Below, in pieces: positions 4,795-64,000 of a stretch of DNA of 64,000 bases. Source of the stretch: a virus. The stretch spans positions 1 through 64,000 of IMG/VR virus record IMGVR_UViG_3300022680_000058; one strand, 5' to 3'. Each line of letters begins with the position of its first letter. Position 1 is the first letter of the stretch. A program made the translations under genes and the position numbers. A model generated the notes under the pieces. It did no database searches, was not told where the DNA came from, and was given only the letters and a program-made list of their open reading frames with translations.

Positions 4795-5352
4795 TCACTC
4801 GTCTGAAGAAACCAATGCAGGTGCTGGTACTGGCGGGTCCGACGGAATGACACCATCAGGCTTCGTTCTTTCTTTGTGGAGCCTTGCTTCGAGTAGGTCT
4901 CGGATCGCGTCCTGAGCAAGCGTATCGAGTCCAGCCTCTCCAACCCTTGCCTCAACGTAATCGACAGCCACCTGTAGCTTCTCAGCACTCTCTGTCTTCA
5001 CACCGTCTGACCGGAGAGCTTTTCTCGTCTGCTCCTCAGAGAACGCGACAGCATCCTTGACGATCCGATTGTAGATACTCAAGGCGGCATGCTGTTTGTC
5101 GTCGCTCCACTTCCTTGACAGCTTCCGAATGAGCCATCCACCGAGAACGACAAGAACCGTCTCCAACAACGGAGACACGATCTGAACCAAGAAACTGAGC
5201 AGGACCATCCACCACTCTTGGGTATCTGCCGCCTGCTCCATCGTCAGATTCACATCAACCGGCGGGCAAGGCTGAGCAAACGCCGCCGTGGCAATCAGAG
5301 ACAGCGCTCCAAAAACCAAAATTCCTGCAACCATCCTCCAACTCATCACCAA
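4795..5352 (-). CDS. putative holin (LL-H-like C-terminal pattern)
   Basis: N-terminal hydrophobic segments, then AVAFSEEQ..SAEKLQVAVDYV..IRDLLEA resembling the LL-H holin pattern. Confidence 0.5.
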   Translation of the reverse strand: MVMSWRMVAGILVFGALSLIATAAFAQPCPPVDVNLTMEQAADTQEWWMVLLSFLVQIVSPLLETVLVVLGGWLIRKLSRKWSDDKQHAALSIYNRIVKDAVAFSEEQTRKALRSDGVKTESAEKLQVAVDYVEARVGEAGLDTLAQDAIRDLLEARLHKERTKPDGVIPSDPPVPAPALVSSDE

Positions 5353-29898: not shown

Positions 29899-30690
29899 TC
29901 AGTATTCGGAATCCCACTCATATTCAGCTTCAATGTCAATCGGAACAAAAAAACTGAACGTCCATGGGGCCTTTGATTTGAGAGATATTTTTCCAATATC
30001 TGCCTTCATCTCCAAGTCAACATCGATAACGATCTCACCGCTCGTTTCACGAGAAAATTCCTCATCCGTCTCTTCATTTGCCGCGTCAACAGCCTTGCGG
30101 GCAAGAGCCCTGAGAGCATCATCGTCAAACCCGTACTCTTTCTCCCAGGTCTTTACCATGCTGGAGAGCTCTTCATCACCAAAATGATCAACGACTTTTC
30201 TATCAGTCGCGACCTTTTGAGCAATCGACGGGCCAACAAACCCAGAAAGTTGTCTTTTGATGTTTGCGCTGAGTTTTGAGCTTGAGAGCTTGTTCACCCC
30301 GGAGTATGACAGCTCTCTTGGATATGACGCTTTAGCGAAAAACCATTCAGGGTCAGGATCGTCAGGCCAATCGAAGTGCTCGTAGGAACTTTCCAGCTCG
30401 TCCTCACGAACGACCTTGAACTTTGGGTTTTTGTTCTTGAGCGTCTTGTCGATCAAAACACCAACACTCGATTGGAGACCAGAGAGCACCTCTGAAATCG
30501 CATCTTCGAGCTTACCCCGATCCACATTATCAGCCCCATGCCGGATCAAGGCGTCAGAAATGACATCGACAGAAGATACTTTTTTCTTCCTGGAAGCTTT
30601 CCGTCTCGGCTTGCGAGCCTTCGGAGCTCTAACATTATAAGAAGTCCGTCCGGAAGCAATCGCCTCTAACAACTCTTGTGAACCCTTCAT
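29899..30690 (-). CDS. tagged cargo-family protein (MKGSQELLE|AIASGRTSYNVRAP)
   Basis: GGAGGAG RBS before ATG at 30690; shares the post-Glu motif with genes at 46.5-52.2 kb. Confidence 0.7.
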   Translation of the reverse strand: MKGSQELLEAIASGRTSYNVRAPKARKPRRKASRKKKVSSVDVISDALIRHGADNVDRGKLEDAISEVLSGLQSSVGVLIDKTLKNKNPKFKVVREDELESSYEHFDWPDDPDPEWFFAKASYPRELSYSGVNKLSSSKLSANIKRQLSGFVGPSIAQKVATDRKVVDHFGDEELSSMVKTWEKEYGFDDDALRALARKAVDAANEETDEEFSRETSGEIVIDVDLEMKADIGKISLKSKAPWTFSFFVPIDIEAEYEWDSEY

Positions 30691-30740
30691 TTCTGGCTCC
30701 TCCAGCATTCATTGTATCAAACAGCAATGAATCCTTCACA

Positions 30741-43850: not shown

Positions 43851-44537
43851 TCAAACGAGACCTCTTGAGTTTACACTCGTGATCAAGTTTGGTGAAGTGG
43901 GGGCGACATACGGGTCGTGGAAATCGAGCTCACCCTCAACCCTGAGGGATATTGTCCAGCCCAATGTTCTGTCCGCCACATCAACAATCTCATCCAAGGT
44001 ATCCAGTGACTCCTGGAACGCATAGTACCCTCTCTCGGCGCCCACAGAGTCAATGAAATACACCTGCCCATACGGTCCGAACTTTTGGCCAACCTTCCGC
44101 AACATCAAGTCTGCCTGAGTCCTCAACCTGGCCCTTATGTGGACCTCATACATGATGTCATACGGGTCTGCCCATTGCTTGATTTCGAGAGCCGAAGGCC
44201 CCTGAACACCACCAGACGAAGTCACAGTCTTTGATGTGGCAGCCGGTGTGTAATACTCACGACCACCTGGGTTCCTTCGTTGAGGAGCATGGTTGAGCGC
44301 TGTCCTCGAAACAACAATGTTTGGAAGAAGCTCGTTCTGATACGTCGCCTCTGGCTCTTGAAAGTAGATCGGAATATACCCACCATACTCGTCCGGCCCG
44401 AGAACATTGTCAATTCTGACCGCATAGACCTGAACAGTCTCACCGTCGAACTCGTGCGGGATCAACTCTCCACCCGCTGTCCGAATCATCCCCTCGTCAA
44501 AATCACGAAGGAAGACTATTCCTGTTCTGGCACTCAT
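43851..44537 (-). CDS. tail terminator / sheath stabiliser (gp15/Pvc16-like)
   Basis: LRDFDEG..LPNIVVSR..PYDIMYEVHIRA..Q motif and position. Confidence 0.65.
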   Translation of the reverse strand: MSARTGIVFLRDFDEGMIRTAGGELIPHEFDGETVQVYAVRIDNVLGPDEYGGYIPIYFQEPEATYQNELLPNIVVSRTALNHAPQRRNPGGREYYTPAATSKTVTSSGGVQGPSALEIKQWADPYDIMYEVHIRARLRTQADLMLRKVGQKFGPYGQVYFIDSVGAERGYYAFQESLDTLDEIVDVADRTLGWTISLRVEGELDFHDPYVAPTSPNLITSVNSRGLV

Positions 44538-46112: not shown

Positions 46113-46538
46113 CTACAACATACTCCGACCACCACCTGAAACCACTGGCCACTTCCCTCCCTGGTATGGGTTCGGCTTCAAAACGTTCCTGACATACAAG
46201 TCCTTCACCCGATCGAGCCGAGACTTCTCCATGTCAGGGGGTGGGACGACCCACACAAGATACTTTTCCGGGTCCACATCCACTTCGAGAGTCGTCCCCG
46301 ACGAAACGTCTCGAACCCGAACAACACCAATGGCAGGATCAACCTGAGTGATTCGACCATGCTTGATGATGTTCTTCCCCTTCTTTGACCTCACAGTGAC
46401 CAACTGCCCAGCCATCAGGTTTACCCGCTCTGCCGCCTCCTCCAGCCTCGCAGAGTTTTCCACGATGTCAGAGACCTCGGATTCCTGTAAGGCTACAATC
46501 GCCTCTCTGAGGACCGCATTGATGCGCTGAACATCCAT
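46113..46538 (-). CDS. leader-tagged protein (MDVQRINAVLREAIVALQE), SH3-like payload
   Basis: Shared leader; GQLVTV..GRITQVD..VRVRD beta barrel. Confidence 0.75.
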   Translation of the reverse strand: MDVQRINAVLREAIVALQESEVSDIVENSARLEEAAERVNLMAGQLVTVRSKKGKNIIKHGRITQVDPAIGVVRVRDVSSGTTLEVDVDPEKYLVWVVPPPDMEKSRLDRVKDLYVRNVLKPNPYQGGKWPVVSGGGRSML

Positions 46539-47173
46539 CAGACCGGAACTCCCTCGTAGCCAATGACACCCTTGATGTCCATGACCATCTCTCCGACCTT
46601 ATCGACCTGTGATTGGGCAAATGTTCTGGCGTCACCCTTCGATGATGTGAAGAAGATTCCGCGAGACCCCCATCCGCGTCTCACTGTCTTGACATAGACA
46701 GCACTTTCCCGCTCCTTTGACACCTTGATCAGAAATCTCTTCTTTCCACCCTTGCTGGCGCCCCCACCCTGAGCTTCGAGTTCTGCCAAAGTTTCACGAC
46801 CGAGCTGTGTAATGGACCACTTCTCAATCTCGGAGCCATCATCGTCACCCTTGTAGACCTCCATCACAATGAGGCCAAGATCCTCCATCTTGTAGAGGGT
46901 TGGAGTGAACATCCCCGTGATTGCTTTCGTGCCCATCGGGGTCGTGTACCACTTCCAGTAGTACCCAGTCCCAGGGTGCCTGGTGTAGAGGGTCCCATGG
47001 TCAGCAAGGTTTCTGAGCGTCTGCACAGCCTTTGGGGCGAGCCTTGGGAGCTTCTTCCCCTTCCGCCCTTTACCCTTGCTCGACAACTGTTTTGGCGTCG
47101 GAATTTCGTATCCACCGAGCTTCGTCTCACTAATTGCCGCATGAAGTTGTGCTGAAAGTTTAGGCATCATCAA
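46538..47173 (-). CDS. tagged basic protein with winged-helix-like payload
   Basis: AISE|TKLGGYEIPTP, K-rich linker, TLYKMEDLGLI..WSITQLGRETL. Confidence 0.7.
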   Translation of the reverse strand: MMMPKLSAQLHAAISETKLGGYEIPTPKQLSSKGKGRKGKKLPRLAPKAVQTLRNLADHGTLYTRHPGTGYYWKWYTTPMGTKAITGMFTPTLYKMEDLGLIVMEVYKGDDDGSEIEKWSITQLGRETLAELEAQGGGASKGGKKRFLIKVSKERESAVYVKTVRRGWGSRGIFFTSSKGDARTFAQSQVDKVGEMVMDIKGVIGYEGVPV

Positions 47174-47730
47174 ATCCTGTCGTGTTCCGTCTTTCGGAAC
47201 GGCACGAACTTCGACCTAAGCTTGACCTCGATCTTGAACTGAACGAAGGTTGATGTCGTGAAGACATTTCCATCCCTGGTAGCCTTCACTACATCCCACT
47301 GACTGAACTGAGACGAGTTTCCGAATGGAACCTCTGACCAAAATTCGATAATGTCGCCCTTCTTCGGATACGGGGCGCTCCTGTCCTCGAACTCTTTTCT
47401 TGAAATCCAGATGACAGCCTCAGACTCCGTTCTCGCACCCTGCTCACTTGCTTCCACAGTGACATTGTCCGACTGTGGATAGTCAATCGCCGCATAGAGC
47501 TCGAAAGGCCCGTTGTACGACCAATCCTTCCCCTCATGAGAGGGCTCTCCATAAACAGGATCTCGATTCTTAGCTCTACGAAGCTGATAGAGCTTCACAG
47601 GCTCTCCAGCGAGCCTGGCAGGCTCTGTAGCAACGGAGTCCCACAACGCTTGTTCCGTGCCACAATCATCACAATCGCTGCCCGGAAAGATGCGTCTCGT
47701 GGGCTCGCAGTCGTCGCTACAGAACCCCAT
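47170..47730 (-). CDS. neck / head closure protein (gp14-like)
   Basis: GEPVKLY..DPVYGE..PKKGDII motifs. Confidence 0.7.
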   Translation of the reverse strand: MGFCSDDCEPTRRIFPGSDCDDCGTEQALWDSVATEPARLAGEPVKLYQLRRAKNRDPVYGEPSHEGKDWSYNGPFELYAAIDYPQSDNVTVEASEQGARTESEAVIWISRKEFEDRSAPYPKKGDIIEFWSEVPFGNSSQFSQWDVVKATRDGNVFTTSTFVQFKIEVKLRSKFVPFRKTEHDRI

Positions 47731-48314
47731 CACCACCACCCCTGATATTTCGCCGGTGGCCTCTTCTGAGCATGTCCAGTAACAGACCTGGCGATATTTC
47801 CAAGCTTCTTGGCATAGTTCGTGATTTTGCTGGCGAGCGTCTTGATCCCTCCCTCATCATCAATCGAGACATTCTTCCCGATCGTCATGAGCTCTGGGTA
47901 CTCATCAACCCACTGGTCCACAACCATCTGAGCATCTTTCTTCCGGTCAAAGAATGTCCCCTCATACCCGCCAAAAGCCATGCTCATCCCAGTTGTGGCA
48001 TGAGAAATAACCCACGAAGTTCCTTTATGGCTCTTGTGAACAGCCCAGACACCTTTGACATACGCCTTGATTGGCTGCTTCGTGTGCCCCTCATCATGGA
48101 ACATGTTCGGGACACGGATCTTGATGGTTTTCCCCGACCATCCAGTCGGCCCTTTCTTCCCCTTCTTCGGCGACTTCATCCCAAAAGTCCCTGGAGCACG
48201 AACATCATAGCTCGTTACACCAGAGGCTATTGCCTCAGCCATTACGGCGATCTCATCTTCTTGAAATGTTGAAATCGCCGTCACGAGAACAGTGTTGACC
48301 GTGTGAACATCCAT
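47730..48314 (-). CDS. leader-tagged protein (MDVHTVNTVLVTAISTFQE)
   Basis: Shared leader plus AE|AIASGVTSYDVRAP. Confidence 0.75.
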   Translation of the reverse strand: MDVHTVNTVLVTAISTFQEDEIAVMAEAIASGVTSYDVRAPGTFGMKSPKKGKKGPTGWSGKTIKIRVPNMFHDEGHTKQPIKAYVKGVWAVHKSHKGTSWVISHATTGMSMAFGGYEGTFFDRKKDAQMVVDQWVDEYPELMTIGKNVSIDDEGGIKTLASKITNYAKKLGNIARSVTGHAQKRPPAKYQGWW

Positions 48315-48841
48315 CACATATCTGCCTTGAACGCAAGGTGCGCTTTCAGAGCTTCGAGGATGTCCTTGTAGACGTCTTTCACGGTTCTGCCCGACGTGAT
48401 GATCGATGCCTTACCATGGTTGAGAACGCCGCCGACATCAACAGAGCTCGGGTTGATGAACATGTCAATGTTCTTCTGCCAGCCGACCTTCTTCTCATCG
48501 AAATCGACGAAGACCTGTCGTCTGTCCTTCTTCTTCCCGGTTCCCTTGTAGCCCTGGTAGACCCTCTTGGTTCCTGGGAGGTCTTTCTTGAGCTTCTTGA
48601 GCTGCTTCAAGAGCGCCGTAGAAAACTTGACCCTCTCTTCGAGAGTCCCCCCGCCAGTGATCCCCGCTGGAGAGAACTTCGATGGAGGAGGAGGAGTATA
48701 CTGCTGTCCACGAGGGGACGGAACTCTGTACACCCCGGTGACACCATGAGCCATCGCCGCCTCGTGGAGGTCGTCAACCTCACACTCCTGGAAGAAAACA
48801 ATGGCTTCGACCAGTGTCGTATTGACCGCCTGAATGTCCAC
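48314..48841 (-). CDS. leader-tagged protein (MDIQAVNTTLVEAIVFFQE)
   Basis: Shared leader plus LHE|AAMAHGVTGVYRVPSP. Confidence 0.75.
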   Translation of the reverse strand: MDIQAVNTTLVEAIVFFQECEVDDLHEAAMAHGVTGVYRVPSPRGQQYTPPPPSKFSPAGITGGGTLEERVKFSTALLKQLKKLKKDLPGTKRVYQGYKGTGKKKDRRQVFVDFDEKKVGWQKNIDMFINPSSVDVGGVLNHGKASIITSGRTVKDVYKDILEALKAHLAFKADM

Positions 48842-48844
48842 AGC

Positions 48845-49171
48845 TCACCCCTTTTTCTTGGTCCGGTTCTTCATGATGCTGACGCAAACGCCTTCCGGCT
48901 CTTTCGCCTTGGAACACCGTCGGAAAGCATCAACACAGTCTGAGAAGCTATTGAAGTCCTTCCCTTGCTTGTCTCGGTACTTCCGCATGCAGTCAGGTTC
49001 GCTCTTGATGGGACCTGTGGGCCGCTTCCGCTCCTTGCCCTTCTTCCCCCTCTTGGCAAGCGCCGCCGGTGTTGGAGGCGTGTATGCCGCCTCGGAGATC
49101 CCATCGATGTCCGCTTCCTGAAAACCGATGATTGCTTGAAGGAGAACCGAATTGACCTGCCCGATATCCAT
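48845..49171 (-). CDS. leader-tagged basic Cys protein (MDIGQVNSVLLQAIIGFQE)
   Basis: Shared leader plus ISE|AAYTPPTP. Confidence 0.75.
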   Translation of the reverse strand: MDIGQVNSVLLQAIIGFQEADIDGISEAAYTPPTPAALAKRGKKGKERKRPTGPIKSEPDCMRKYRDKQGKDFNSFSDCVDAFRRCSKAKEPEGVCVSIMKNRTKKKG

Positions 49172-49174
49172 GAC

Positions 49175-49768
49175 CTACCTCGCTTCACCAACACCAACGG
49201 ACTCAAAGGCAGGATCGCCCTCCATTTTGTCCGCATGGGGATAATACCTCATGGTGTAAAGCCAGCCCTTCAATGGGGCAAGCCCACCAGTTCCATAATA
49301 CTCTGTCGTGAACCTGCCCTTGAACGCCTTGCCGCCGATCTTTGTCCTGAGTGTTTTTGCGACATCTTTTGCAATCTTTGGAACATCTTTCGACTTGCCA
49401 TCGTCAGCGTCCATGAAGATAGAAACCTGGAATTGCGGTCCAAGCTTCTTCGAGACGTCCTGACCAAAAGTGTGGCCTGTAGCACGGATCGAAATCTTGG
49501 GGTACTTCTGCTTGAACTTTTTGTCCAATTCAGAGGCTATCGCGATGATTCTCGATCCGTAGATTCTCTCGAAGTGTTTAGCAAGGTGCATCTTGCTATA
49601 CCGCTTGAACTCCTCAGGACTCGGCACATGGAATCCAGACCCGTACTTCTCTCCGGTAGCGCTCGTTCTGTACGGCTTCCCGACGATGTACACTGACTCT
49701 TCGAGCTCACTCTCTTGGAAGCCGATGATCGCCTGAAGAAGAACCGAGTTGACTTGCCTGATATCCAC
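49175..49768 (-). CDS. leader-tagged protein (MDIRQVNSVLLQAIIGFQE)
   Basis: GTG start at 49768; leader nearly identical in protein to 48845-49171. Confidence 0.75.
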   Translation of the reverse strand: MDIRQVNSVLLQAIIGFQESELEESVYIVGKPYRTSATGEKYGSGFHVPSPEEFKRYSKMHLAKHFERIYGSRIIAIASELDKKFKQKYPKISIRATGHTFGQDVSKKLGPQFQVSIFMDADDGKSKDVPKIAKDVAKTLRTKIGGKAFKGRFTTEYYGTGGLAPLKGWLYTMRYYPHADKMEGDPAFESVGVGEAR

Positions 49769-49772
49769 GCCC

Positions 49773-51227
49773 TCACCCCTTGCCCAACAATTCAACAATA
49801 TCATGCACAGGGACCCAGCCGGGAGATGTTTTCAGAAGAGGGAGACTCTTGAGCGCCTCTTCTGCTTCGACCTGCTCCGGATCTGACCCAAGTTTCTTGA
49901 GCTCACGAACGACCTCGAATCGCTCTCCATCCTGAGTCACTGTGTGAGCGGACCTCTCGTCAGTGAACTTTCCGTCTTTCCCGTGGTAGGTCTTCGACTC
50001 GCCGAACACCTGTTTCCTAGCCTTGACGAGCTTGATCTTCCTCTGGAACTTCCCCTGAACGTCGTCACCCTCGAAACCAACCTTGTTGAGGTAGATTTCT
50101 GTCGCACGAATCCACTCCCGCTGTCGGTGGGCTTCTTCGTCCCGATCATCCACAGAATGCATGAGAGCGAGACCAGCCATGGCCACCCCGTACCAGAATG
50201 GACTCGATGACCTTAGATGACGAAACGCCGTGTCGTCGTCGATGTCACTCCACGTCCAACCAGTACCACCCTGGTAAGACGTCTTTGCCCTTGTCGTTCG
50301 ACGAACCTTCGCCTTGGCAAAAGCGATATCGAGGAGCTTATCAGCGAGACGCCTCGCAGGATGCCTTGTCATCATCCTCGGGACGAAACGTTTCAACATC
50401 TCAGGATTCGCACGAGATGACATCCTCATGAAGTTCTTCTCGTTCGAAACAGCCTCTCGGTCCTCGGGCACGTCAACCCTCTTGGCCCAATTGACACCCT
50501 TCATGTACTGAGACGTGTCACGCCTGAGGTTTGGCAACGGGACATCAACATCAACCCCAGCGAGCTCAACCCCCATGGTCTTTCTTGGACCCGAGGCCTT
50601 GTCCTTCTTCCCCATCACATCCTTCTCTGGGTTGATGTCCTCTGGGTTCAGGTACTTGCTCCTGAGCTCACGAGCTGTTCTCTGTACGTAGTCCTCACGT
50701 TCGCTCTTCGGCAACGCCCCCTTGAGCGCCGATCCAGCCATCGCCACGCCATACCAGAACGGATCAGTCTTGAGGAGGTCACCAGGAACTACCCCATGGA
50801 ACTGATACCCGCCCCGAGTTGTCCCTACGCGCCTCATCTTATCGGCGACCAGATCCACTGGGTGAGTGATGTTCGCCACGACAGTCCCCTGGTCGAGCAA
50901 GACAGCGATAGACTTCCTGTCCATCTTCTTCGCCCCCTCCAGGCTCTTCGTGATGGACCTGAGCTTCGGGTCCTCGAACTCGGGCAGATCCTTCGTCATG
51001 TTTTTGTTCGCCCAGTTGACACCCTTAACAAACTGAGACTGGCGTCCAGGGGATGTGTTCGGGACCTTGACGTCAGCCGTGACGCCCCCATAACTGATGA
51101 TCGGCTTCTGCCGATAGAGAGGCGTCGGGTCCTTCTCCACTTTCGGCGGCGCCGGAACATCAAAAGACGTCACTCCCTTGGCGACTGCTTCATCAACGCG
51201 GCTGAAAAGATTGCCCCACCTACTCAT
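49773..51227 (-). CDS. tagged protein with two copies of an unrecognised domain
   Basis: ATG at 51227 with GAGG RBS; VDE|AVAKGVTSFDVPAP; duplicated KGVNWA..HP..PFWYGVAMAG. Confidence 0.75.
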   Translation of the reverse strand: MSRWGNLFSRVDEAVAKGVTSFDVPAPPKVEKDPTPLYRQKPIISYGGVTADVKVPNTSPGRQSQFVKGVNWANKNMTKDLPEFEDPKLRSITKSLEGAKKMDRKSIAVLLDQGTVVANITHPVDLVADKMRRVGTTRGGYQFHGVVPGDLLKTDPFWYGVAMAGSALKGALPKSEREDYVQRTARELRSKYLNPEDINPEKDVMGKKDKASGPRKTMGVELAGVDVDVPLPNLRRDTSQYMKGVNWAKRVDVPEDREAVSNEKNFMRMSSRANPEMLKRFVPRMMTRHPARRLADKLLDIAFAKAKVRRTTRAKTSYQGGTGWTWSDIDDDTAFRHLRSSSPFWYGVAMAGLALMHSVDDRDEEAHRQREWIRATEIYLNKVGFEGDDVQGKFQRKIKLVKARKQVFGESKTYHGKDGKFTDERSAHTVTQDGERFEVVRELKKLGSDPEQVEAEEALKSLPLLKTSPGWVPVHDIVELLGKG

Positions 51228-51235
51228 GACCAACC

Positions 51236-51640
51236 TCACACAGTTTTCTCGATGTCCCTGAACAGATCCTTGAATCGCTTGTACTTCGCCGGGGCTTCTT
51301 TTTCCATGGCGTGCTTCATCGTCCGGCGAGCTCCCTTCTGAGTCTGCCTGATGCTCGACACCTGACCGCCCTTCTTGTAGGGGGGCTTCAGGTATCCATT
51401 GCGAGTCATCGCCCAACGACAGATGTTCCACGCCGCACGAACGCTCTTCTTCTTCCCACCATTCTTGCCATCTTTCACAGCGACGATACAGTGAGCAAGC
51501 TGAGCTGGAACCCTGTCGACCTTCGCCGCCGCCTTCGAGCCGCCTGGCTTCTGTTGCTGGCGAGGAGGTTTCCTCCTCAGACCTCCACGGGGAGCTTGGC
51601 GCCTCTCAAGAATCATCTCGACTGGTACCCACAGACTCAC
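51236..51640 (-). CDS. basic hypothetical protein
   Basis: MSLWVPVEMILE| start; very K/R-rich; HC..IC Cys pair. Confidence 0.7.
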   Translation of the reverse strand: MSLWVPVEMILERRQAPRGGLRRKPPRQQQKPGGSKAAAKVDRVPAQLAHCIVAVKDGKNGGKKKSVRAAWNICRWAMTRNGYLKPPYKKGGQVSSIRQTQKGARRTMKHAMEKEAPAKYKRFKDLFRDIEKTV

Positions 51641-51643
51641 AAC

Positions 51644-52228
51644 TCACCCCACACACAGATCGTTGCAGATGTTCGAGAAGTATTTCTTCTTCAAGGCTAC
51701 AACCTCTCGGTCGACGTAGTCATCCTTCTGCCTCATCGTGAGGGAGCGAATGAGCGCCTCCCCGACCATCCCGACAGCGTACCAATAAGGATCGGTTTCC
51801 AGCATCTGGTCTGGTACCGTTCCGTCGTACCTGTAACCGGCTTTCTGTGAAGCCATAGCGATCAGCTTCTTCGCCACCCGCTCAACAGGATGCCTCATCA
51901 CAGACTGATACCGACCAGACGAAAATCCGGAACGGACAGCTCCAATGTTCCGGCCAGACTGCTTCTCGATCTCACGAACAACGAACGCCAAACCCTCATC
52001 AGGAGGTGGCGGGTCCTTCAAGACAGTATCCTTCACCCACTCGACGCCGAGCCTGAACTTCTCGTTCGTCCACGCAGACCCCGCTGGCGTCTTCACAGTA
52101 GCGCTCACAGGCCCGTAAGAAACTCTGAGGGGGACTCCACCCCTGGTCACCTTCCTTTGCATTTGAGACGGCGTAGGCACCTTGTATGAGCCAGCCATCG
52201 CCTCCAGCAACCGAGCGGAGAGCTGCAT
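51644..52228 (-). CDS. tagged protein with one copy of the same unrecognised domain
   Basis: MQLSARLLE|AMAGSYKVPTP; GVEWV..HP..DPYWYAVGMVG. Confidence 0.75.
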   Translation of the reverse strand: MQLSARLLEAMAGSYKVPTPSQMQRKVTRGGVPLRVSYGPVSATVKTPAGSAWTNEKFRLGVEWVKDTVLKDPPPPDEGLAFVVREIEKQSGRNIGAVRSGFSSGRYQSVMRHPVERVAKKLIAMASQKAGYRYDGTVPDQMLETDPYWYAVGMVGEALIRSLTMRQKDDYVDREVVALKKKYFSNICNDLCVG

Positions 52229-53725: not shown

Positions 53726-55219
53726 TCAGAGTCCGCCAGTGATTGCGACGCGCCCGAACCATTCGCTCCTCAAGAGCTTGGTTGCATATCGGGTCCTCAT
53801 CCCCTTCTTGTTCGTCTGATCCTCAGGATCTTGGAACGTCTGGGTCATTTGAAGGGGGACGTATGGGCTGAAGACGAAGCCCGCATCCAGATAGCTGCGA
53901 CCACGGAGGCCAAGCATGATGTTGTTCCAGGAGAAGAAGGGGTCTTGGTATCCCCACCACTTGTTGGAGAGGGGACCCATCTTGAGGATGCCCTGGTGCG
54001 AGGTCATGGGACCGTAGCTCGGGGGCACCTGGATGCCATCGAAGGGGCCTTGAACGCCAGCACCGGAGGAGATCCATCCGGGGCGATAGTCGCCATGGGT
54101 CTGGGTCTGAATGAGCTTGGCCGAGACGTCGGGACTGGTGACGTACCAGTTTGCCGGGGCTCGGAGGGTTTGCTTGTGGATCTCGAAGCTGACGGCGCTC
54201 ATCCGAGTCATGACAGCTCGGATGTGGTCGACCTCGGAGAGACCAGCAGGAACGGTGAAGTCGAAGGTATCGGTGATACCCGCCGACGCCGCATAGAGCT
54301 GGTTGATGATGTCGCGGTCGATTTCGAGAGCGACTTCCTGGGCGATGCCGCCGACGAGCTCTGTTTCGGCGTCGAGCCCGTGGAACGCTCGGAGGTCATC
54401 CTGGGCCTCAGAGCTCCAGCGAGCCTTGAGCTTGCGGGTTTGAGCCTGGATGGGCAGGAAACTGATGTCGATGTAGACATCCGGGATGTTCCGGTTGCCT
54501 TCCATGTCGTACCAGTAGGTCACCCGAACGATGTTGCCATTGGTGGTGTTGACGCCGAACTGGAAGTTCGTGATCTGGCCATTGGCATAGTTGATGGTAC
54601 CAGAGGTCGCACCAGTGAACCCACCAGATCCATTGTCGACGTGACTTTGGACGATGATGTCCGCAGTCGCGTTGTACTCCTCGACCGTCACCGAGTAGCC
54701 CAGGTCGGCGTCGAGCGGACGAACTGGGTTGTACTGAAGGATGGTCGCACCAGAACCACCAGCCGGTGACCACTCCTGAGCAGCAGTGATATCAGCGAGC
54801 TTCTCATACTCGATCTTCTCGGAGGAGTAGAGCGAGTCGAAGTTCTGGATGAGGTTCGAGCCAGCCGTGGTCCCTCCCTTGGAGCGGCCATGCTTGAACT
54901 CGAAGTAGAAGACCGCACCGACGGGAGAAGTCATCGGCTGGACCGAGACGATCTCGTTGGCGATCAGGTTGGGGAACACCCTCCGGAGAACCGGAAAGAT
55001 GTACTTCGTGTACGATCCCGCGTTGGTCGAGAGCGTGTCCTCTTCGAGCTGCCGACGCATGTCACGGAACTGGTTCTCCATGAGCATGGCCATGCACTTG
55101 CGGGTGTAGTCTTCCTGGATGCCGCCGAGGTAGCGACCCCATTTTTTGACGAGCAGAGAAGTATATCGCTGGTCGCGAATCGTCTCACTCCCTGCCTCGT
55201 TCAGATTTTGTCTACTCAT
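53726..55219 (-). CDS. major capsid protein (T4 gp23-like)
   Basis: RRVFPNLIANEIVSVQPMTSP, TRKLKARWS.EAQDDL..HGLDAE.EL, FSPYVPL, GMRTRYA motifs. Confidence 0.95.
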   Translation of the reverse strand: MSRQNLNEAGSETIRDQRYTSLLVKKWGRYLGGIQEDYTRKCMAMLMENQFRDMRRQLEEDTLSTNAGSYTKYIFPVLRRVFPNLIANEIVSVQPMTSPVGAVFYFEFKHGRSKGGTTAGSNLIQNFDSLYSSEKIEYEKLADITAAQEWSPAGGSGATILQYNPVRPLDADLGYSVTVEEYNATADIIVQSHVDNGSGGFTGATSGTINYANGQITNFQFGVNTTNGNIVRVTYWYDMEGNRNIPDVYIDISFLPIQAQTRKLKARWSSEAQDDLRAFHGLDAETELVGGIAQEVALEIDRDIINQLYAASAGITDTFDFTVPAGLSEVDHIRAVMTRMSAVSFEIHKQTLRAPANWYVTSPDVSAKLIQTQTHGDYRPGWISSGAGVQGPFDGIQVPPSYGPMTSHQGILKMGPLSNKWWGYQDPFFSWNNIMLGLRGRSYLDAGFVFSPYVPLQMTQTFQDPEDQTNKKGMRTRYATKLLRSEWFGRVAITGGL

Positions 55220-55254: not shown

Positions 55255-56895
55255 TCAGCGCTGGTTCTCTGGAATACCAGAGAGTTCATCGAAGGCATCA
55301 TCCGTGAGTCCGAAGCCTTCGACCAACGCGCCCGATTGGCCCTCACCGTTTTTGTCTCTCCAGGGCTCCGACGTCCCGTCCCTGAACGGGTTCTCTTCCT
55401 CTGACAGAGCCCTTCTGTTCCCCCGACTCACACGAGAACGGATTCGTTCTGCCTCGTCCTGGTCGAGAGCTCTCGTTCGTCGAGCACCAAAGGATCTGAT
55501 GACCCTTTCGGCGCCATCGATATCTGTGATCCCCTCACAGAGATCCACGACCTCTTCACCTTGCGGGTGTGCCGTCTGGACCCCTCTGAGGTACGACTCG
55601 ATCTGAATCGTCTCTGCAATCTGGATGGCCTCCTTCAGCTTCGACTTGGCGTGGTCCGCCTCCTCAGTCGCTTTCGAGAGCTTTCCCTCCAGATTTGCGA
55701 TCCTCTCACGGAGCTTGGCTTCGATGTCATCAGGTTCGTCATCCTCAGTCTTTGCCGAAGAGAGTTCGCCCTGAATAGCCTCAATCCGCTCGTCAATCTC
55801 GCTGACGTTTTTGAACGACTTCACATCTCCCACGAGCTTGACGATGGTGTCCCTTGAAGGGTCTCCACTCAACTTCCGCTCCATGTGGAGTCTGTATGTC
55901 GCCTCTTTCGCCACCTCAGCCATTTCGGCGTACTTCTTTTCCGCCGCCTCGACCTCCAACTCCTTGTCAGAGACCCTCTTTTCGAGCTCAGAAACCTTGC
56001 CCGACTGGTCATCCGCTCCATCACCTGTCGGAGTCGACGACGCGAAACTCGTGACGAGCCCAGCAATCTGCTCCAACACCTGGATGGCGCCACCGACCTC
56101 CGGGTCGTTCAGTAGTTCCTGTCGAACCCTCGTCTCGGCAGCCTCATCGAGCTTTTCGATCTTGCGAAGGAGTTCGTTCGAGAGCTGCTCCCTGACCTCC
56201 TCCTCGATCAGAGCACGCTCGGGAGACTCGACGTCTTCCCTGATCGGCTCCCCATCACCATCTGCCAGCGGACAGCCACAGCCCTCTCTGAGAGCCGCTG
56301 CTGCGAATTCATCCGCGAGACCTGGGTAGTCACGCTTGAAGGACTCCAAGGTGAAGTCTCCGTCACCTGGGACCTTCTCGATCTCTTCCTGGAAGACCTT
56401 GGGGTATGCAGTCTTTGTCGCTGGGTCTGCCACGAAGTCAAAAGTGTCCAGTCTGAAATCTTCCTGAACCTCCATAATCCCATTCGGGAGCGCCTTCGTG
56501 GAACCGAAACCTCGGCTACTGACACCGACCTTGGCCCCCGCCTCGGCCAGGGTCTTCATGATGCGACCCATAGGAGTGTCGAGGAGCTCAGCCTCCCCAA
56601 TGACTGAGTTCCCCTCAACACGAAGATTCGTGAGCAAGTGACTGACACGTTGAAGCTTGGTTCTTCCGTCAGCCGGATGATCGAGCTCTCCGAACGCCCT
56701 GCGATCTCTCATCGCCTCAGACAGTCGCCCGATCTCACGCCGCCAAAGATGCTCTCTGTAGAGACGCTTGTTCTCGGTTGGCTTATCAGACCTGGCGAAT
56801 TCGCCCTTCATGACGAGCTTGTGAGGCTTTGATGAGTCTGCCGACTCCTGCAAAGCACACGAAAACGTCATGGTGTCGATGAGCAGCTCAGCCAT
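55255..56895 (-). CDS. prohead protease (gp21-like) fused to scaffold coiled coil
   Basis: N.RLY, GELDHP, VSH, GVSSRG.GS, DFVADP, then about 370 aa of E-rich coiled coil. Confidence 0.9.
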   Translation of the reverse strand: MAELLIDTMTFSCALQESADSSKPHKLVMKGEFARSDKPTENKRLYREHLWRREIGRLSEAMRDRRAFGELDHPADGRTKLQRVSHLLTNLRVEGNSVIGEAELLDTPMGRIMKTLAEAGAKVGVSSRGFGSTKALPNGIMEVQEDFRLDTFDFVADPATKTAYPKVFQEEIEKVPGDGDFTLESFKRDYPGLADEFAAAALREGCGCPLADGDGEPIREDVESPERALIEEEVREQLSNELLRKIEKLDEAAETRVRQELLNDPEVGGAIQVLEQIAGLVTSFASSTPTGDGADDQSGKVSELEKRVSDKELEVEAAEKKYAEMAEVAKEATYRLHMERKLSGDPSRDTIVKLVGDVKSFKNVSEIDERIEAIQGELSSAKTEDDEPDDIEAKLRERIANLEGKLSKATEEADHAKSKLKEAIQIAETIQIESYLRGVQTAHPQGEEVVDLCEGITDIDGAERVIRSFGARRTRALDQDEAERIRSRVSRGNRRALSEEENPFRDGTSEPWRDKNGEGQSGALVEGFGLTDDAFDELSGIPENQR

Positions 56896-56903
56896 TTCAA
56901 CTC

Positions 56904-57122
56904 CTACCGGGACCTGATTTCTCCAGAACGATACTGGCTCCTAGCCAGTAGGTCACCGAGACGCTTCTTGGGTCTTTTCCGCTTCGGGACAATTTTCTTC
57001 TTCCCCTTAGCCTCGAACCCAATCCTGTCTCTGACCGTCCCTCCAAGTCCAAGGATGTCCCGTCGGCGACTCCGATGTTTCAGCTTGTTGGCTTCCAAGA
57101 GCCACCGAACGGGAATCCACAC
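56904..57122 (-). CDS. small very basic protein
   Basis: GAGG RBS, GTG start, MWIPVRWLLE| then R/K-rich. Confidence 0.55.
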   Translation of the reverse strand: MWIPVRWLLEANKLKHRSRRRDILGLGGTVRDRIGFEAKGKKKIVPKRKRPKKRLGDLLARSQYRSGEIRSR

Positions 57123-60994: not shown

Positions 60995-63900
60995 CTAACT
61001 TCTGAGAAACGGCAACGATCCGCCTGGGGCCTTCTTCTGGGGTCCGCTCTTCTTGCGGTCTCCATGGTCATCCTTCTTCACGAGAATCATACCGCCAGTC
61101 ACCCAGGAATCATCCTCTTTGTTCATATCGGGCGACTCTCTGGAACTCGACACCATGTCCACAGGGCGCCCAGGAGCCTTCTTACTCAGAGAATACACGA
61201 CACCAGCGATCGAGTCAGCCACGTCCTTTGACCCTGGTGTCCCATCCGGGTTTCGCTTTGGGTGGTCAATCTTGACCTTCCCGCCCCGCTTCGGAACTCG
61301 CTGTAGATATCTGAACTCTTGCAAGGCGATAGGGTTCGGCGCCATCCGGAAACGACCTTCATAGATGGCTGCCTTCAATGTGTCGTATGGCTCGGTTGTC
61401 CTGTCAATCGAAACGACTTCAGCCTCGATCCCATGCTTGTTGAATTGCTGGATCGTATCAGCACTCTGGAACTGGTCGAGAGAGCTGTAGGAAACCATGA
61501 ATCCATGACCCATAAATTGATAAACGATCCCACGCAGATCAGCCAACATGATCTCGTCACCTGGCGGTGGGATAACACGAAGGACAAGATCTGCTTCCAT
61601 GCGAGGGGCCAGCTCGTTGTACTCCTCGCCGTAAGCATCCTTCCGAACAACCTCTGTCCATCCAGCAATATGACCTATCGTGAGTCCCGCAGAGTCCCCC
61701 GTAAGCGCCGGGTCGATGTGGACGTATCGAACCTCCCCAGGATGCCTCTTCGGGCGCCACGCTTCCTCGTGGACCCCACCAGGGAGCCGTCGCACGAACG
61801 GGTTACAAATCCGGTTCCATTCAATCTTCAACGGAGACCCAGCGACCCACTCAACCACAGGCCCATCACCCTCAAGACCGGCCACTGGGTTCTGTAGTGT
61901 CTCATCCTGACAGTTGTAGACCATCTCAGTTCGGCTCATGTACTGAGATATGACGTCAGTAGCCACACCAGCAACGTCTCTCAAGGCACTATCGATATCC
62001 GCCTCAAATTCACCTCGATAATCCTCTGGAACATCGACGATTTGAAGCCCGAGCTCTCGATACCGTGCCTCATCTTCCTCGTCTCCAGGGCCAAGGATTC
62101 GAGAAGAAATCCGCTCATTACCAACAACAACCTTGAAAAACTTCCCGCTGAATCGCTCCTTGGGGTGGACCTCCCAGGTTGCATACTCCCGGATAAACGT
62201 CATGGGGTCTTCAGATTCTTTAGCCTGGTCAATCCTCTTCTCGATGAACGCGTTGGGGCGCTCCTTCGATGACGCCACAATCAGCACACCTGGGAGCCGA
62301 CCAACCCTCTGGAACCTGGACTTCATTCGCCGAATGATCGACTTGTAGATTTTCTCTCCGACATCGATGAGCACCTCTCGCCCAAGGCGATCAACCTCCT
62401 TGGCCTCACCCATAAAGCTCGACTCATCGATAAACCCAGAGAACACATTGAGGCCGATGATTGCAGACGAACCAGTCGAGCCAGCCACGACCTGAATATT
62501 GTTCGGGAACCTGATTTCGAGCTGCGACGGCGCCTCTTTGGATGGAAAGTGCTCCTGAAAGTATCTTGAGTGACGAATCTTTCCGATCAACTCGTTGATA
62601 ACGACACGCTTGGCCACCTTCTCCGTGACACTCAACATCGCCACGTAGATATTAGACCCAAGGTCAATCCCATACGCCCGTTGAGGATTCCTGAGGCATG
62701 ACATCTGATAAATGGCGTAAGCCATCGCAGTTGTTGAGAAAAAGCTATTGTGAACCACGACGCCATTGACAACAGCGTTACCTGTCGCCGGAACACTCAA
62801 GTCGTAAACATCACGAACACCCCTTGGCTCAACCGACTCAACCCGCTCCCACACGATGTCATCGCTCATGTCAGCGAATCTCCGGAACCTCCCGTGATAC
62901 CCGACCGAATCACACAACCGAACAAACTTTTGACGCCCCATATAGGAGCCCTTACACAACCCAGCAAGCTTGGCCCACTTCTTCTTGTTGTGCAGTCCAG
63001 TCTCTCTTCGGATCTCTTTCAGCTCTTTTGTCGTAATCGGGACAACATCCCAATTCGAGTTCGGCTTCACACTCCTCGCCTGCTTCAGGAGCCGATCACA
63101 CGCCGCCTCTTTCCCCGGTATCTGTCCAACCCTCTCCATGAACAAAATCTGGTTCGGCGCGTCAGCTATCTGAAGCCTCCAGGCATCGAGGTCACCATCC
63201 TGGTTCTTTTTGCGCTTGTAGCTCTTCCGAGCCACCACACCAAAGCGACGGAGGAGATACTGGATGTCATCGATCAACCCCTCAGACGCAAGGCAGATCT
63301 CAATCTTTCGAGGACTCCCCGTGTAGACGTCCCCATCGGTGAACAGCCAACGAAGAAAGAGAGAGAGCTGCTCATCCGACAAACCAAAATACGTATCCGG
63401 TACCCTTTTTACTTTCGACAGGCATCTGATACCAAGAGTGTCAGTCCACTCTGTCAATCCCCTAAGGCTGATCGTAGGCTTCCCATCTGTGGTCGGGCTC
63501 GCCCCATCAAACCCAGGAATCGATCCAGCATGCTTGACGACTTCTGCTCTAAGATTCGGGTCACCTTTGGTGTACGTCGTCCGCGCCCCTGTCATGCTTC
63601 CGTCAGCGATGAGAGCCGCCGAGACGACCACTTCATCGTCTGAGATTTCGAGCTCTCTCTGAGGGGCTGGGACGCGACGAGCTACAGCTACCAAATCACC
63701 CTCTTCAAGAGCAGAGACATGACGATACCCATCCGGGCACAACACCGGGTGATCAAGGCTCGCATCGAGGTGCTGACCTGAGACCAGCTTCATCCTGGCA
63801 CATTCTTTTCGACCAGACTTCCATACCCGATTCGACCTCTCATGGGCAATTGATTGCCCACCAAATGACGGAACTGATGGTGTCTTCCCAACAGCTTGAC

Positions 63901-64000
63901 CAATCGTCATCCTTGTGCCAGAATCTGAATCTACGAAAAAACTCAATGATTCTAGGCACTTCCCCCACCCAATGCTGCCTCCGAGCAATGCCTCTTGGTA
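60995..64000 (-). CDS. terL: terminase large subunit (5' end outside window), intein-containing
   Basis: Walker A GSIGWGK/S, Walker B FIDE, nuclease HIDPA..D and KDVADS; frame open to the window edge. Confidence 0.9.
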   Translation of the reverse strand, partial: YQEALLGGSIGWGKCLESLSFFVDSDSGTRMTIGQAVGKTPSVPSFGGQSIAHERSNRVWKSGRKECARMKLVSGQHLDASLDHPVLCPDGYRHVSALEEGDLVAVARRVPAPQRELEISDDEVVVSAALIADGSMTGARTTYTKGDPNLRAEVVKHAGSIPGFDGASPTTDGKPTISLRGLTEWTDTLGIRCLSKVKRVPDTYFGLSDEQLSLFLRWLFTDGDVYTGSPRKIEICLASEGLIDDIQYLLRRFGVVARKSYKRKKNQDGDLDAWRLQIADAPNQILFMERVGQIPGKEAACDRLLKQARSVKPNSNWDVVPITTKELKEIRRETGLHNKKKWAKLAGLCKGSYMGRQKFVRLCDSVGYHGRFRRFADMSDDIVWERVESVEPRGVRDVYDLSVPATGNAVVNGVVVHNSFFSTTAMAYAIYQMSCLRNPQRAYGIDLGSNIYVAMLSVTEKVAKRVVINELIGKIRHSRYFQEHFPSKEAPSQLEIRFPNNIQVVAGSTGSSAIIGLNVFSGFIDESSFMGEAKEVDRLGREVLIDVGEKIYKSIIRRMKSRFQRVGRLPGVLIVASSKERPNAFIEKRIDQAKESEDPMTFIREYATWEVHPKERFSGKFFKVVVGNERISSRILGPGDEEDEARYRELGLQIVDVPEDYRGEFEADIDSALRDVAGVATDVISQYMSRTEMVYNCQDETLQNPVAGLEGDGPVVEWVAGSPLKIEWNRICNPFVRRLPGGVHEEAWRPKRHPGEVRYVHIDPALTGDSAGLTIGHIAGWTEVVRKDAYGEEYNELAPRMEADLVLRVIPPPGDEIMLADLRGIVYQFMGHGFMVSYSSLDQFQSADTIQQFNKHGIEAEVVSIDRTTEPYDTLKAAIYEGRFRMAPNPIALQEFRYLQRVPKRGGKVKIDHPKRNPDGTPGSKDVADSIAGVVYSLSKKAPGRPVDMVSSSRESPDMNKEDDSWVTGGMILVKKDDHGDRKKSGPQKKAPGGSLPFLRS
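62747..63958 (-). mobile_element. intein with LAGLIDADG homing endonuclease (404 aa)
   Basis: GK|CL start, block B LDHP, ALIADG and WLFTDG motifs, VYDLSV..VVHN|S end. Confidence 0.92.
63843..63860. repeat. dispersed palindrome copy 6 (inside the intein)
   Basis: TGGGCAATTGATTGCCCA. Confidence 0.9.

Follow-up and report, generated by a model that had tools for sequence, protein, structure and literature searches.

The window analysed here is the whole 64,000-nucleotide stretch introduced above, part of a 148-kb phage genome. Between positions 46113 and 52228 it holds a cassette of minus-strand genes inside the head-neck operon, with reading frames overlapping or closely spaced, flanked by head-tail adaptor and by neck and sheath genes. 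The features of the cassette, and those elsewhere in the window that bear on it, are as follows (arrows mark candidate cleavage points).

29899-30708, minus strand: g29899, 269 aa, outside the cassette; short leader L-L-E↓A, G-x-T-S-Y-x-V-x-x-P motif, Lys/Arg tract
46113-46538, minus strand: g46113, 141 aa; long (type-1) leader, linker, Tudor/SH3-like beta-barrel payload
46538-47173, minus strand: g46538, 211 aa; short leader ending I-S-E, Y-x-I-P-x-P motif, Lys/Gly-rich tract
47170-47739, minus strand: g47170, 189 aa; acidic, Cys-rich, leaderless, inside the cassette
47730-48314, minus strand: g47730, 194 aa; long leader, A-x-G-V-T-S-Y-x-V-x-x-P motif, basic linker, alpha/beta domain
48314-48841, minus strand: g48314, 175 aa, GTG start; long leader, A-x-G-V-T-S-Y-x-V-x-x-P motif as in g47730, payload
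48845-49171, minus strand: g48845, 108 aa; long leader and Lys-rich four-Cys payload
49175-49768, minus strand: g49175, 197 aa, GTG start; long leader 17/18 identical to that of its neighbour
49773-51227, minus strand: g49773, 484 aa, ATG at 51227; short leader V-D-E↓A, G-V-T-S-F-x-V-P-x-P motif
51236-51640, minus strand: g51236, 134 aa, pI 11.4; third leader type, W-x-P-x-x-x-L-x-E
51644-52228, minus strand: g51644, 194 aa; short leader M-x-L-S-x-x-L-L-E↓A, Y-x-V-P-x-P motif, basic body
53726-55219, minus strand: major capsid protein of the gp23 family (Pfam Gp23 1e-60, match from residue 70)
55255-56895, minus strand: prohead protease, 546 aa; N-terminal T4 gp21-like S77 domain and long C-terminal extension
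56904-57122, minus strand: very basic protein of 72 aa, just upstream of the protease; W-I-P-V-x-x-L-L-E↓A leader

One common leader opens five minus-strand genes with starts at 46538, 48314, 48841, 49171 and 49768, and all five N-termini were found where the initial annotation had placed them. Two of the five (48841 and 49768) start with GTG. The same starts are used by independent gene calls in a public protein collection (P0041, P0052, P0010 and P0045), P0041 being the call that backs g48314. Against a six-frame translation of the whole 148-kb genome, a leader HMM matched the five at E 3e-11 to 2e-8, and the next unrelated matches had E > 3. Further copies, four canonical and one diverged, lie at 104-120 kb; long-leader genes number up to 9-10 in the genome, and genes with a leader of any type about 17. 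Within 46113-52228 the long leader is accompanied by two other, shorter leader types and by one leaderless conserved gene (47170-47739).

The leader had been described as 19 residues long. A common N-terminal leader is indeed present, but its conservation extends to about residue 27, with the consensus M-D-I-x-x-V-N-x-V-L-x-K-A-I-x-G-L-Q-x-x-E-I-E-x-M-x-E. It matches no Pfam or PHROG family, in keeping with the earlier remark that it was not recognised as a named one. Counted from the second codon, the leaders starting at 49171 and 49768, already noted as near-identical peptides with many synonymous differences, agree in 17 of 18 residues; nine of their codons differ synonymously and one non-synonymously. 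The same synonymous pattern between leaders, together with a common ribosome-binding stretch, is seen in a related phage. Judged from these sequences, purifying selection acts on the leader as a peptide. The net charge of the leader is -4 to -7. Its helical hydrophobic moment does not exceed that of shuffled sequences, so docking through a simple amphipathic helix is unsupported.

Column counts were made over 127 family representatives. Best kept are N7 (127), L10 (123), A13 (124), I14 (118), Q18 (117) and E21 (123). L or M stands at position 25 in 106 of the 127 and Glu at position 27 in 97; the pattern [L/M/I]-x-E ending at position 27 is present in 90, with Ala at P1' in 62, and the column count for A28 is 55. 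P3 is occupied by Leu (55 representatives), Met (46), Ile (14), Val (4) or Phe (1), and S, A or G was never seen there among the representatives. E19 is kept in only 62/127. The best-kept candidate cleavage site in this alignment is [L/M/I]25-x-E27↓A28, not F/L-Q-E19; a T4-type (L/I)-x-E pattern had been proposed, and the pattern exists at residue 27, while the F-Q-E at 19 is the less conserved of the two. E27 is missing in about a quarter of the representatives and E19 in half, which leaves the cleavage site uncertain and counts against a capsid-targeting role.

The gp21-like protease that had been reported was recovered: it matches Pfam PF03420 (Peptidase_S77, 2.2e-16), phrog_207 (8.8e-49) and T4 gp21 itself (PDB 5JBL, E 3.9e-8), and its His (G-E-L-D-H-P), Ser (V-S-S-R-G) and Asp align with the catalytic positions of T4 gp21. 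It is presumed to be the enzyme that removes the leaders. In an alignment of 10 relatives the capsid protein has an invariant L58-x-E60↓D61 just ahead of its conserved domain, likely a maturation site of the same type as the leader site. A T4-type portal is also present (Portal_T4 8.6e-57). The 72-aa protein occupies the place of gp67/gp68 in T4.

In an all-against-all BLAST, most pairs were similar over the first 20-27 residues only. The earlier statement that the bodies are unrelated holds for these pairs, but not for g47730 and g48314, which are alike over about 100 residues at 36% identity. No payload belongs to a Pfam or PHROG family. At the level of fold, the 'SH3-like' label given to one payload was correct: AlphaFold2 predicts for g46113 a helix at residues 3-34 and a five-strand barrel at 46-97 (pLDDT 83-89), the best Foldseek matches of which are Tudor domains (E 4e-3). 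For g47730 the prediction is a helix at 3-30, disorder at 31-59 and a domain at 60-180 (pLDDT 83-90), for which a PDB fold search gave no match; this domain is found again in many leader proteins. In both models the leader is predicted as a separate helix outside the folded domain. The 'cysteine-rich basic' payload is that of g48845, with 4 Cys and 28% K+R; the module recurs behind the same leader and, in P0009, is joined behind one leader to two copies of the g47730 domain. The payload of g49175 has no detectable relative, and a search of 5.8 billion clusters returned only itself. The body of g49773 contains two copies of the g51644 domain (E 4e-28 to g51644) and a C-terminal module, which relatives encode as a separate small gene.

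The predicted mature leader proteins are basic (pI 9.5-11.9; 9.8 for the basic body of g46538) and their leaders acidic. A mature pI of at least 9.5 is predicted for 16 of 17 leader proteins versus 4 of 50 other open reading frames of the window (Fisher p = 7e-11). Leader proteins reach 650 aa, closer to T4 Alt, and two of the about 17 in this genome are putative metalloproteases with HExxH.

An exhaustive leader profile search of 1.84 billion representatives found 129 leader-bearing protein clusters with E <= 1e-3, 47 of them with E <= 1e-10. In almost all, the match begins at residue 1-2, and the proteins have 42-466 aa, a range that leaves out P0015 (1,087 aa, without N-terminal leader). 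A search of the genome and its relatives for further leader-payload swaps, as had been suggested, yielded both more copies and a large family. Payload lengths run from about 15 to about 440 residues. Grouping of 116 payloads gave 46 unlinked groups, of which 33 have a single member, and leader identity is 0.49 between unrelated payloads versus 0.53 between related ones. The family is limited to a single clade of uncultured phages, which encode a T4-type portal, an S77 protease and a gp23 capsid protein; the closest record in a phage collection, itself uncultured, has 32.5% capsid-protein identity. Each of the 22 metagenome loci that carry the leader shows synteny with the two leader loci of this genome. 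Related phages carry from 1 to at least 9 tagged proteins. In more distant relatives each genome has a single leader, carried by a strongly acidic neck-region protein, which is at odds with a picture of basic, DNA-associated cargo.

The shorter leaders also end in L-x-E, and M-x-L-S-x-x-L-x-E-A can be aligned to residues 6-14 of the long leader. Orthologues of g51236, bearing the third type as well, occur in 17 of 23 related loci. The barrel payload follows the long leader in the window but the short M-x-L-S-x-x-L-x-E-A leader in 15 orthologous sequences (11 related loci and 4 database orthologues), which shows that leaders were swapped. The bodies of these orthologues are 58-68% identical in the closest six and 34-46% in more distant ones, and the leader type differs across a clean junction. 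About half of the tagged proteins have, right behind the site, [Y/F]-x-[V/I]-P-x-P and then a Lys-rich tract; both are disordered in the AlphaFold2 prediction. As a guess, the motif and tract might tether the protein to DNA or to the inside of the capsid, for instance. The motif region of g29899 is 76% identical to that of g47730 over 17 residues. The leader is thus well supported as a modular N-terminal element independent of its payload, and its proposed interchangeability is borne out by at least 46 unrelated payload groups and by the swap on an orthologous payload. Full-length paralogy with the leader inside a shared fold was not what the data gave: the bodies are mostly unrelated and the leader is predicted to lie outside the folded domains.

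The leader is probably a capsid-targeting propeptide, the counterpart, in a distant uncultured clade with T4-type heads, of the capsid-targeting sequence (CTS) of T4 internal proteins. A common short acidic tag on many unrelated small basic proteins most likely means capsid loading in the style of those proteins. By this analogy the tagged proteins would enter the prohead, lose the leader and be delivered with the DNA. The acidic, helical tag of about 27 residues would bind a conserved component of the assembling prohead core, and whatever protein is fused behind it would be carried inside. The gp21-like S77 protease would then cleave behind a Glu residue; the expected site is [L/M/I]25-x-E27↓A28, with [L/F]17-Q-E19 as a possible second one. 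The acidic tag would leave, and the basic body would remain with the DNA and probably enter the host along with it. Some observations count against this reading: the leader differs from the T4 CTS in length and sequence, its helical hydrophobic moment is unremarkable, the second leader locus (104-110 kb) is distant from the head genes, and the neighbours of g29899 are tail and baseplate genes.

It is unlikely, on present evidence, that the leader is instead a retained assembly or oligomerisation helix and the tagged proteins structural parts of an inner-body-like or neck-associated bundle rather than cargo. The leader is predicted to be helical over about 30 residues, E21 is conserved above both candidate cleavage Glu residues, distant relatives have their single acidic leader protein among neck genes, and the cassette itself lies between head-tail adaptor and neck and sheath genes, all of which would suit such a helix. 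However, the helix has low to moderate pLDDT and an undetectable hydrophobic face, and the fixed-position [L/M/I]-x-E↓A resembles a gp21-type site that recurs in the short leaders and the capsid protein. The tagged set also varies in number and identity among related phages, unlike a fixed structure, and one payload occurs with either leader type.

The tagged genes could also be fast-diverging tandem paralogues of one ancestor, in which the N-terminus evolved slowest, the bodies diverged beyond recognition and no tag ever moved. They are tandem and tightly packed, g47730 and g48314 are still alike over about 100 residues, g49773 and g51644 are clear paralogues, and the most similar leaders are on adjacent genes. 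This is nevertheless quite improbable, given predicted folds as unlike as a beta-barrel and an alpha/beta domain, the wide span of payload lengths, payload modules that recombine as in P0009, barrel bodies that stay alike across a clean change of leader type, and a post-leader motif that is present, absent or repeated inside a single payload family. A tag function outside the virion, for another destination in the infected cell, timed degradation or regulation, has very little probability: the second locus, at 104-110 kb among non-structural genes, would fit it, but the leader is strongly acidic without hydrophobic or signal-peptide character, the main cassette is in the head-neck operon, the family is confined to phages with a T4-type S77 head module, and the site pattern agrees with the protease specificity inferred from the capsid protein.

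Removal of the T4 CTS by gp21 was reportedly described by Mullaney and Black in 1996. The 10-residue CTS is carried by IPI, IPII, IPIII and Alt and is cut off by gp21 (PMC9026906, PMC8442874, PMC5694885), and T-even phages have diverse CTS-tagged internal proteins (PMC8442874, PMC3012670, PMC9026906, PMC5694885). As in T4, an N-terminal propeptide with a hydrophobic-x-Glu end, known here from sequence, precedes otherwise unrelated, highly basic proteins, and homologues of gp20, gp21 and gp23 are encoded. The short leaders (M-x-L-S-x-x-L-x-E-A) match the CTS in 10-residue length and in layout. The long leader, in contrast, is nearly three times as long, acidic and by inspection without sequence similarity to the CTS; its internal L-x-E is in most cases replaced by L-x-K/R, and the candidate site is found 15 residues closer to the C-terminus. 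The number of leader genes in one 148-kb genome is likewise unlike T4, and no payload has a homologue among IPI, IPII, IPIII and Alt by Pfam or PHROG. Varying payloads behind a conserved leader at the same loci recall the polymorphism of internal-protein loci in T-even phages (Repoila et al.), with the same evolutionary logic of fixed address and variable cargo. Here, however, the phage clade and the leader are others, three leader classes coexist, an orthologous payload has changed leader class, and a second conserved motif stands behind the site. The principle is already known from T-even phages, and the surprise is limited accordingly; this is a different leader in a different clade.

In phiKZ, 201phi2-1 and SPN3US, inner-body or ejection proteins are processed by gp175/gp245, and the SPN3US paralogues gp53 and gp54 have an identical 15-residue N-terminus and diverged bodies (PMC5694885, PMC7411985, PMC9026906). 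In that group, N-terminal propeptides are removed from many head-internal proteins by cleavage behind Glu, frequently at two or more sites, as is predicted here. The proteases there are S80 with S/A/G at P3, whereas here the match is to S77 and P3 is L/M/I; genome size is over 200 kb there and 148 kb here. A phiKZ-like S80 / (S/A/G)-x-E system was rejected on the protease match and the P3 residues. In P1, about 30 N-terminal residues of DarB suffice to send a foreign protein into the capsid (PMC9024508), a length comparable to that of the leader. Unlike the leader proteins, DarB is one protein and not a cargo family, and it has no sequence in common with the leader; P1 is without a separate scaffold, and protease removal is absent from its description (PMC9024508). 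A MuF-domain toxin reading was rejected, as Pfam found no Phage_Mu_F domain among 20 proteins scanned (E <= 0.1 or 0.01). In the MuF polymorphic toxins found in temperate phages, as with the cargo-loading peptides of encapsulins, a conserved targeting part likewise brings variable cargo into a shell of the HK97 fold. The MuF domain is folded and exceeds 100 residues in length; the peptides of encapsulins mostly sit at the C-terminus and stay uncleaved.

A further, tentative and rather doubtful extension of the capsid-targeting reading is a two-part address, in which a removable acidic leader of about 27 residues and a retained [Y/F]-x-[V/I]-P-x-P/Lys-rich element would together serve some 17 loaded and delivered proteins. 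The long leader would then have arisen from a short T4-like CTS by loss of the internal Glu site and extension to a new one. If so, a 148-kb phage would deliver an unusually large and fast-changing set of proteins, and tagged genes of uncultured relatives could be read as injected effectors from their sequences. Should the tag itself work as proposed, the proteins packed into the capsid, and probably injected, could be listed in this way for the whole uncultured clade. Such proteins, none of which has a known family, would be prime candidates for anti-defence and host takeover. As a natural tag of 27 residues for which a candidate cleavage site is defined, the leader might also provide a second encapsidation handle besides those of T4 and P1. 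The evolution of the address can be seen in the coexistence of leader classes in one genome, the exchange of leaders on a single payload, the duplication of ribosome-binding stretch and leader as one unit, and the shuffling of payload modules behind the leader.

The leaderless gene inside the cassette, g47170 (pI 4.9), has no Pfam or PHROG match. It is conserved in 14 related loci at 45-75% identity (44.9% in L015), is leaderless in every one, and probably forms part of the neck or head structure rather than being cargo.

The five genes that carry the long leader, g46113, g47730, g48314, g48845 and g49175 (named by left coordinate, all on the minus strand), have it where the initial annotation had placed it, with the same starts in public gene calls; two of the five start with GTG. 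The leader observation is real and robust. The bodies had been called unrelated. In all-against-all BLAST most pairs are indeed similar only over the first 20-27 residues, but g47730 and g48314 go further, with a second motif in common and 36% identity over about 100 residues. Genes g49773 (true start ATG at 51227) and g51644 lack the long leader and are paralogues of each other (E 4e-28). The adjacent leaders starting at 49171 and 49768, reported as near-identical and synonymously diverged, have 17 of 18 residues in common after the start codon. Their codons show nine synonymous differences and one non-synonymous, so the peptide is conserved and not the DNA. A DNA or RNA signal was rejected because these leaders differ mainly at synonymous sites. 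The proposed leader HMM search of the full genome found four further canonical copies outside the cassette, and a diverged copy is present on a 650-aa protein elsewhere in the genome.

Canonical leader copies outside the cassette (start positions, leader HMM)
104531, minus strand, canonical leader
104875, minus strand, canonical leader
106889, minus strand, canonical leader
119508, plus strand, canonical leader

A leader profile was built from an alignment of 18 leaders from this genome and its relatives and searched without a word filter against 1.84 billion representative proteins. The leader was found in 129 clusters at E ≤ 1e-3 and in 47 at E ≤ 1e-10. In nearly every cluster the match starts at residue 1 or 2, and protein length ranges from 42 to 466 aa. 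All database members are unnamed metagenomic proteins, and in IMG/VR the exact leader pattern occurs in only three contigs. Conservation across 127 representatives (N7 127, L10 123, A13 124, I14 118, Q18 117, E21 123; [L/M]25 106, E27 97, A28 55) indicates a conserved unit of about 27 residues. Judged from the sequence, the best candidate for a T4-style site (hydrophobic-x-Glu, then Ala) would be at positions 25-27. FQE19 was ruled out as the main cleavage site, since E19 is kept in only 62 of the 127; a second site is possible at 17-19, F/L-Q-E. Second cleavage sites are common in propeptides of related systems (PMC5694885, PMC9026906).

In T4, a 10-residue capsid-targeting sequence takes basic internal proteins, or any fusion, into the prohead core and is removed by the protease gp21 (PMC8442874, PMC9026906). 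P1 DarB has a 30-residue N-terminal signal (PMC9024508), and in SPN3US an identical 15-residue propeptide start is common to two paralogues (PMC5694885). The logic of an N-terminal tag that loads varied proteins into the prohead is already described in the T4 literature. The present system has the architecture of that of T4, with a protease of the same family, the same type of site and cargo of like charge. It differs in leader sequence and length, in its three coexisting leader classes, in a second motif that is retained and in how many genes are tagged. The long leader is probably a cleavable capsid-targeting propeptide, and we infer that the tagged proteins are encapsidated, cleaved and injected. 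The packaging leader of the initial annotation is a plausible reading, strengthened by the comparative data. The leaders have a net charge of -4 to -7. The predicted mature pI is 9.5-11.9 in 16 of 17 leader proteins, versus 4 of 50 other ORFs of the window (p = 7e-11).

The AlphaFold2 model of g46113, made with orthologues as alignment, has a helix (3-34) joined by a linker to a five-strand barrel (46-97, pLDDT 83-89), for which Foldseek gave only generic weak Tudor/SH3-type matches. In that of g47730, a low-confidence helix (3-30) and a disordered stretch (31-59) precede an alpha/beta domain modelled with confidence (60-180); the domain has no PDB match by Foldseek (best E 0.26). The leader lies outside the fold in both models, and not within the shared folded domain that had been named as the contrary outcome. 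A predicted helix would also suit an uncleaved assembly helix shared by these proteins, a reading that is unlikely beside the L-x-E that ends all three leader types. A simple amphipathic leader helix is not supported; the hydrophobic moment of nine leaders is not above that of shuffles (fraction at or above the observed value 0.13-0.70).

With the first 45 residues removed and BLAST links drawn at 1e-3, 116 payloads fall into 46 groups without a link between them, 33 of them singletons. Plain divergent paralogy, which the residues common to g47730 and g48314 would fit, is improbable. Leader identity is the same whether payloads are unrelated (0.49) or related (0.53). The g49175 payload has no relative among 5.8 billion clusters and no usable ESM Atlas match. 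Modules are shuffled as well; in P0009, from the public protein collection, a single leader precedes the Cys-rich g48845 module together with two copies of the g47730 domain. Two adjacent genes of a related phage have the same 18-nt ribosome-binding stretch, then leaders with synonymous differences, then unrelated bodies. The C-terminal ~70 residues of g49773 (49773-51227, minus strand) form a module, Y-H-G-K-D-G-x-F-T ... G-G-E-R-F, that is a separate small gene in relatives, leaderless in loci L001, L014 and L058 and with a short leader in L004. Here too, modules of the cassette have been shuffled. The two largest leader proteins, of 650 and 479 aa, lie outside the window and each contain an HExxH motif, which is kept in the orthologues P0105 and two ORFs of L059. 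For the 650-aa protein, the ESM Atlas points to zincin-type peptidases, with matches that stay below the reliability threshold. Both proteins may be packaged metalloproteases.

HExxH leader proteins (G000, the whole source contig)
106925-108877, minus strand, 650 aa (L024:2926-4878)
108879-110318, minus strand, 479 aa (L024:4880-6319)

Orthologues of the g46113 payload were found in related loci (11) and in the protein collection (4). All are about 25 residues shorter and open with a short leader, M-x-L-S-x-x-L-x-E-A. The g46113 body is 58-63% identical to the closest of them, and the alignment shows a clean leader/body junction. The short leader aligns to long-leader positions 6-14, and g46113 carries an extra 13-residue insertion. 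Position 12 is Glu in the short form, at its L-x-E site before Ala, and K, R or Q in 116 of 127 long leaders, in which the new candidate site lies 15 residues downstream. By this alignment the long leader appears to have arisen from the short one by extension. The very basic g51236 begins with a third leader type, W-x-P-x-x-x-L-x-E, as does a 72-aa protein just upstream of the protease, and the same holds in relatives.

Of the 127 representatives, 65 contain the second motif, [Y/F]-x-[V/I]-P-x-P, with 0.35 expected by shuffling. It is located at residues 28-39, right after the predicted cleavage site, in more than one copy in 12 proteins, and is followed by a basic Lys-rich tract (mean net charge +2.8 over 15 residues). 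Motif and tract fall within residues 28-60 in the long-leader proteins g47730, g48314 and g48845 and in g46538, g49773 and g51644. The motif is found behind the short leaders of g46538, g49773, g51644 and g29899 (29899-30708). Within one payload family it may be present, absent or doubled. AlphaFold2 predicts the stretch to be disordered.

The source virus is a single contig of 147,979 bp, of which the window covers the first 64 kb. All real genes of the window are on the minus strand.

Gene order along transcription (minus strand)
60995-63988, large terminase; an intein that carries a LAGLIDADG homing-endonuclease domain splits the gene (Pfam Intein_splicing 1.1e-13, LAGLIDADG_3 1.3e-7)
T4-type portal (Pfam Portal_T4 8.6e-57)
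Three putative core proteins, of 315, 346 and 72 aa, the 346-aa one acidic/basic and scaffold-like
55255-56895, 546-aa protein, N-terminus a T4 gp21-type protease (Peptidase_S77 2.2e-16)
gp23-family capsid protein (1e-60)
143-aa protein
SU10-like head-tail adaptor
46113-52228, leader cassette
Neck genes and 876-aa sheath

The gp21-like protease reported earlier aligns to T4 gp21 (PDB 5JBL, E 3.9e-8), with His, Ser and Asp at the aligned catalytic positions. Its S77 domain takes up only the first ~180 of 546 residues. The remainder is long and charged and may be a fused scaffold, unlike T4 with its separate gp21 and gp22. The capsid protein has an invariant L58-x-E60 directly before its conserved domain. 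Pfam and PHROG scans gave no significant family for any cassette protein or leader protein outside the window. A non-virion function of the leader is very improbable for genes placed between head-tail adaptor and neck.

Phage records include nothing close. A 10-kb megablast had no match among 50,697 of them, and the best capsid-protein match, at 32.5%, is to an uncultured phage of 595 kb. In IMG/VR, 23 loci have capsid-protein relatives at 63-79% identity. The lineage of L004, L005 and L019 carries seven long-leader genes in the corresponding cassette; L001 and L003, which are closest by capsid protein, have short leaders and zero long-leader genes there. A complete 191.6-kb relative has one long-leader gene, with a strongly acidic product, among the neck genes. 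More distant relatives have a single copy of the long leader, borne by a strongly acidic poly-Asp/Glu protein whose gene lies between neck genes of 267 and 228 aa. This protein may be the ancestral leader carrier. The window has no gene at this position, and the two neck genes overlap at 44534-44537.

Acidic single leader protein in relatives
L014:17227-17583
L022:12001-12600
L018 and L023

Genomic context in metagenomes was obtained by a scan with a degenerate DNA pattern, which gave 22 loci, where as many as five leader genes lie within 3.3 kb. Each of the 22 shares synteny with one of the source genome's two leader loci. In the second leader locus of L059, an ORF on the reverse strand (4882-5301) resembles, by eye, an S-adenosylmethionine decarboxylase proenzyme.
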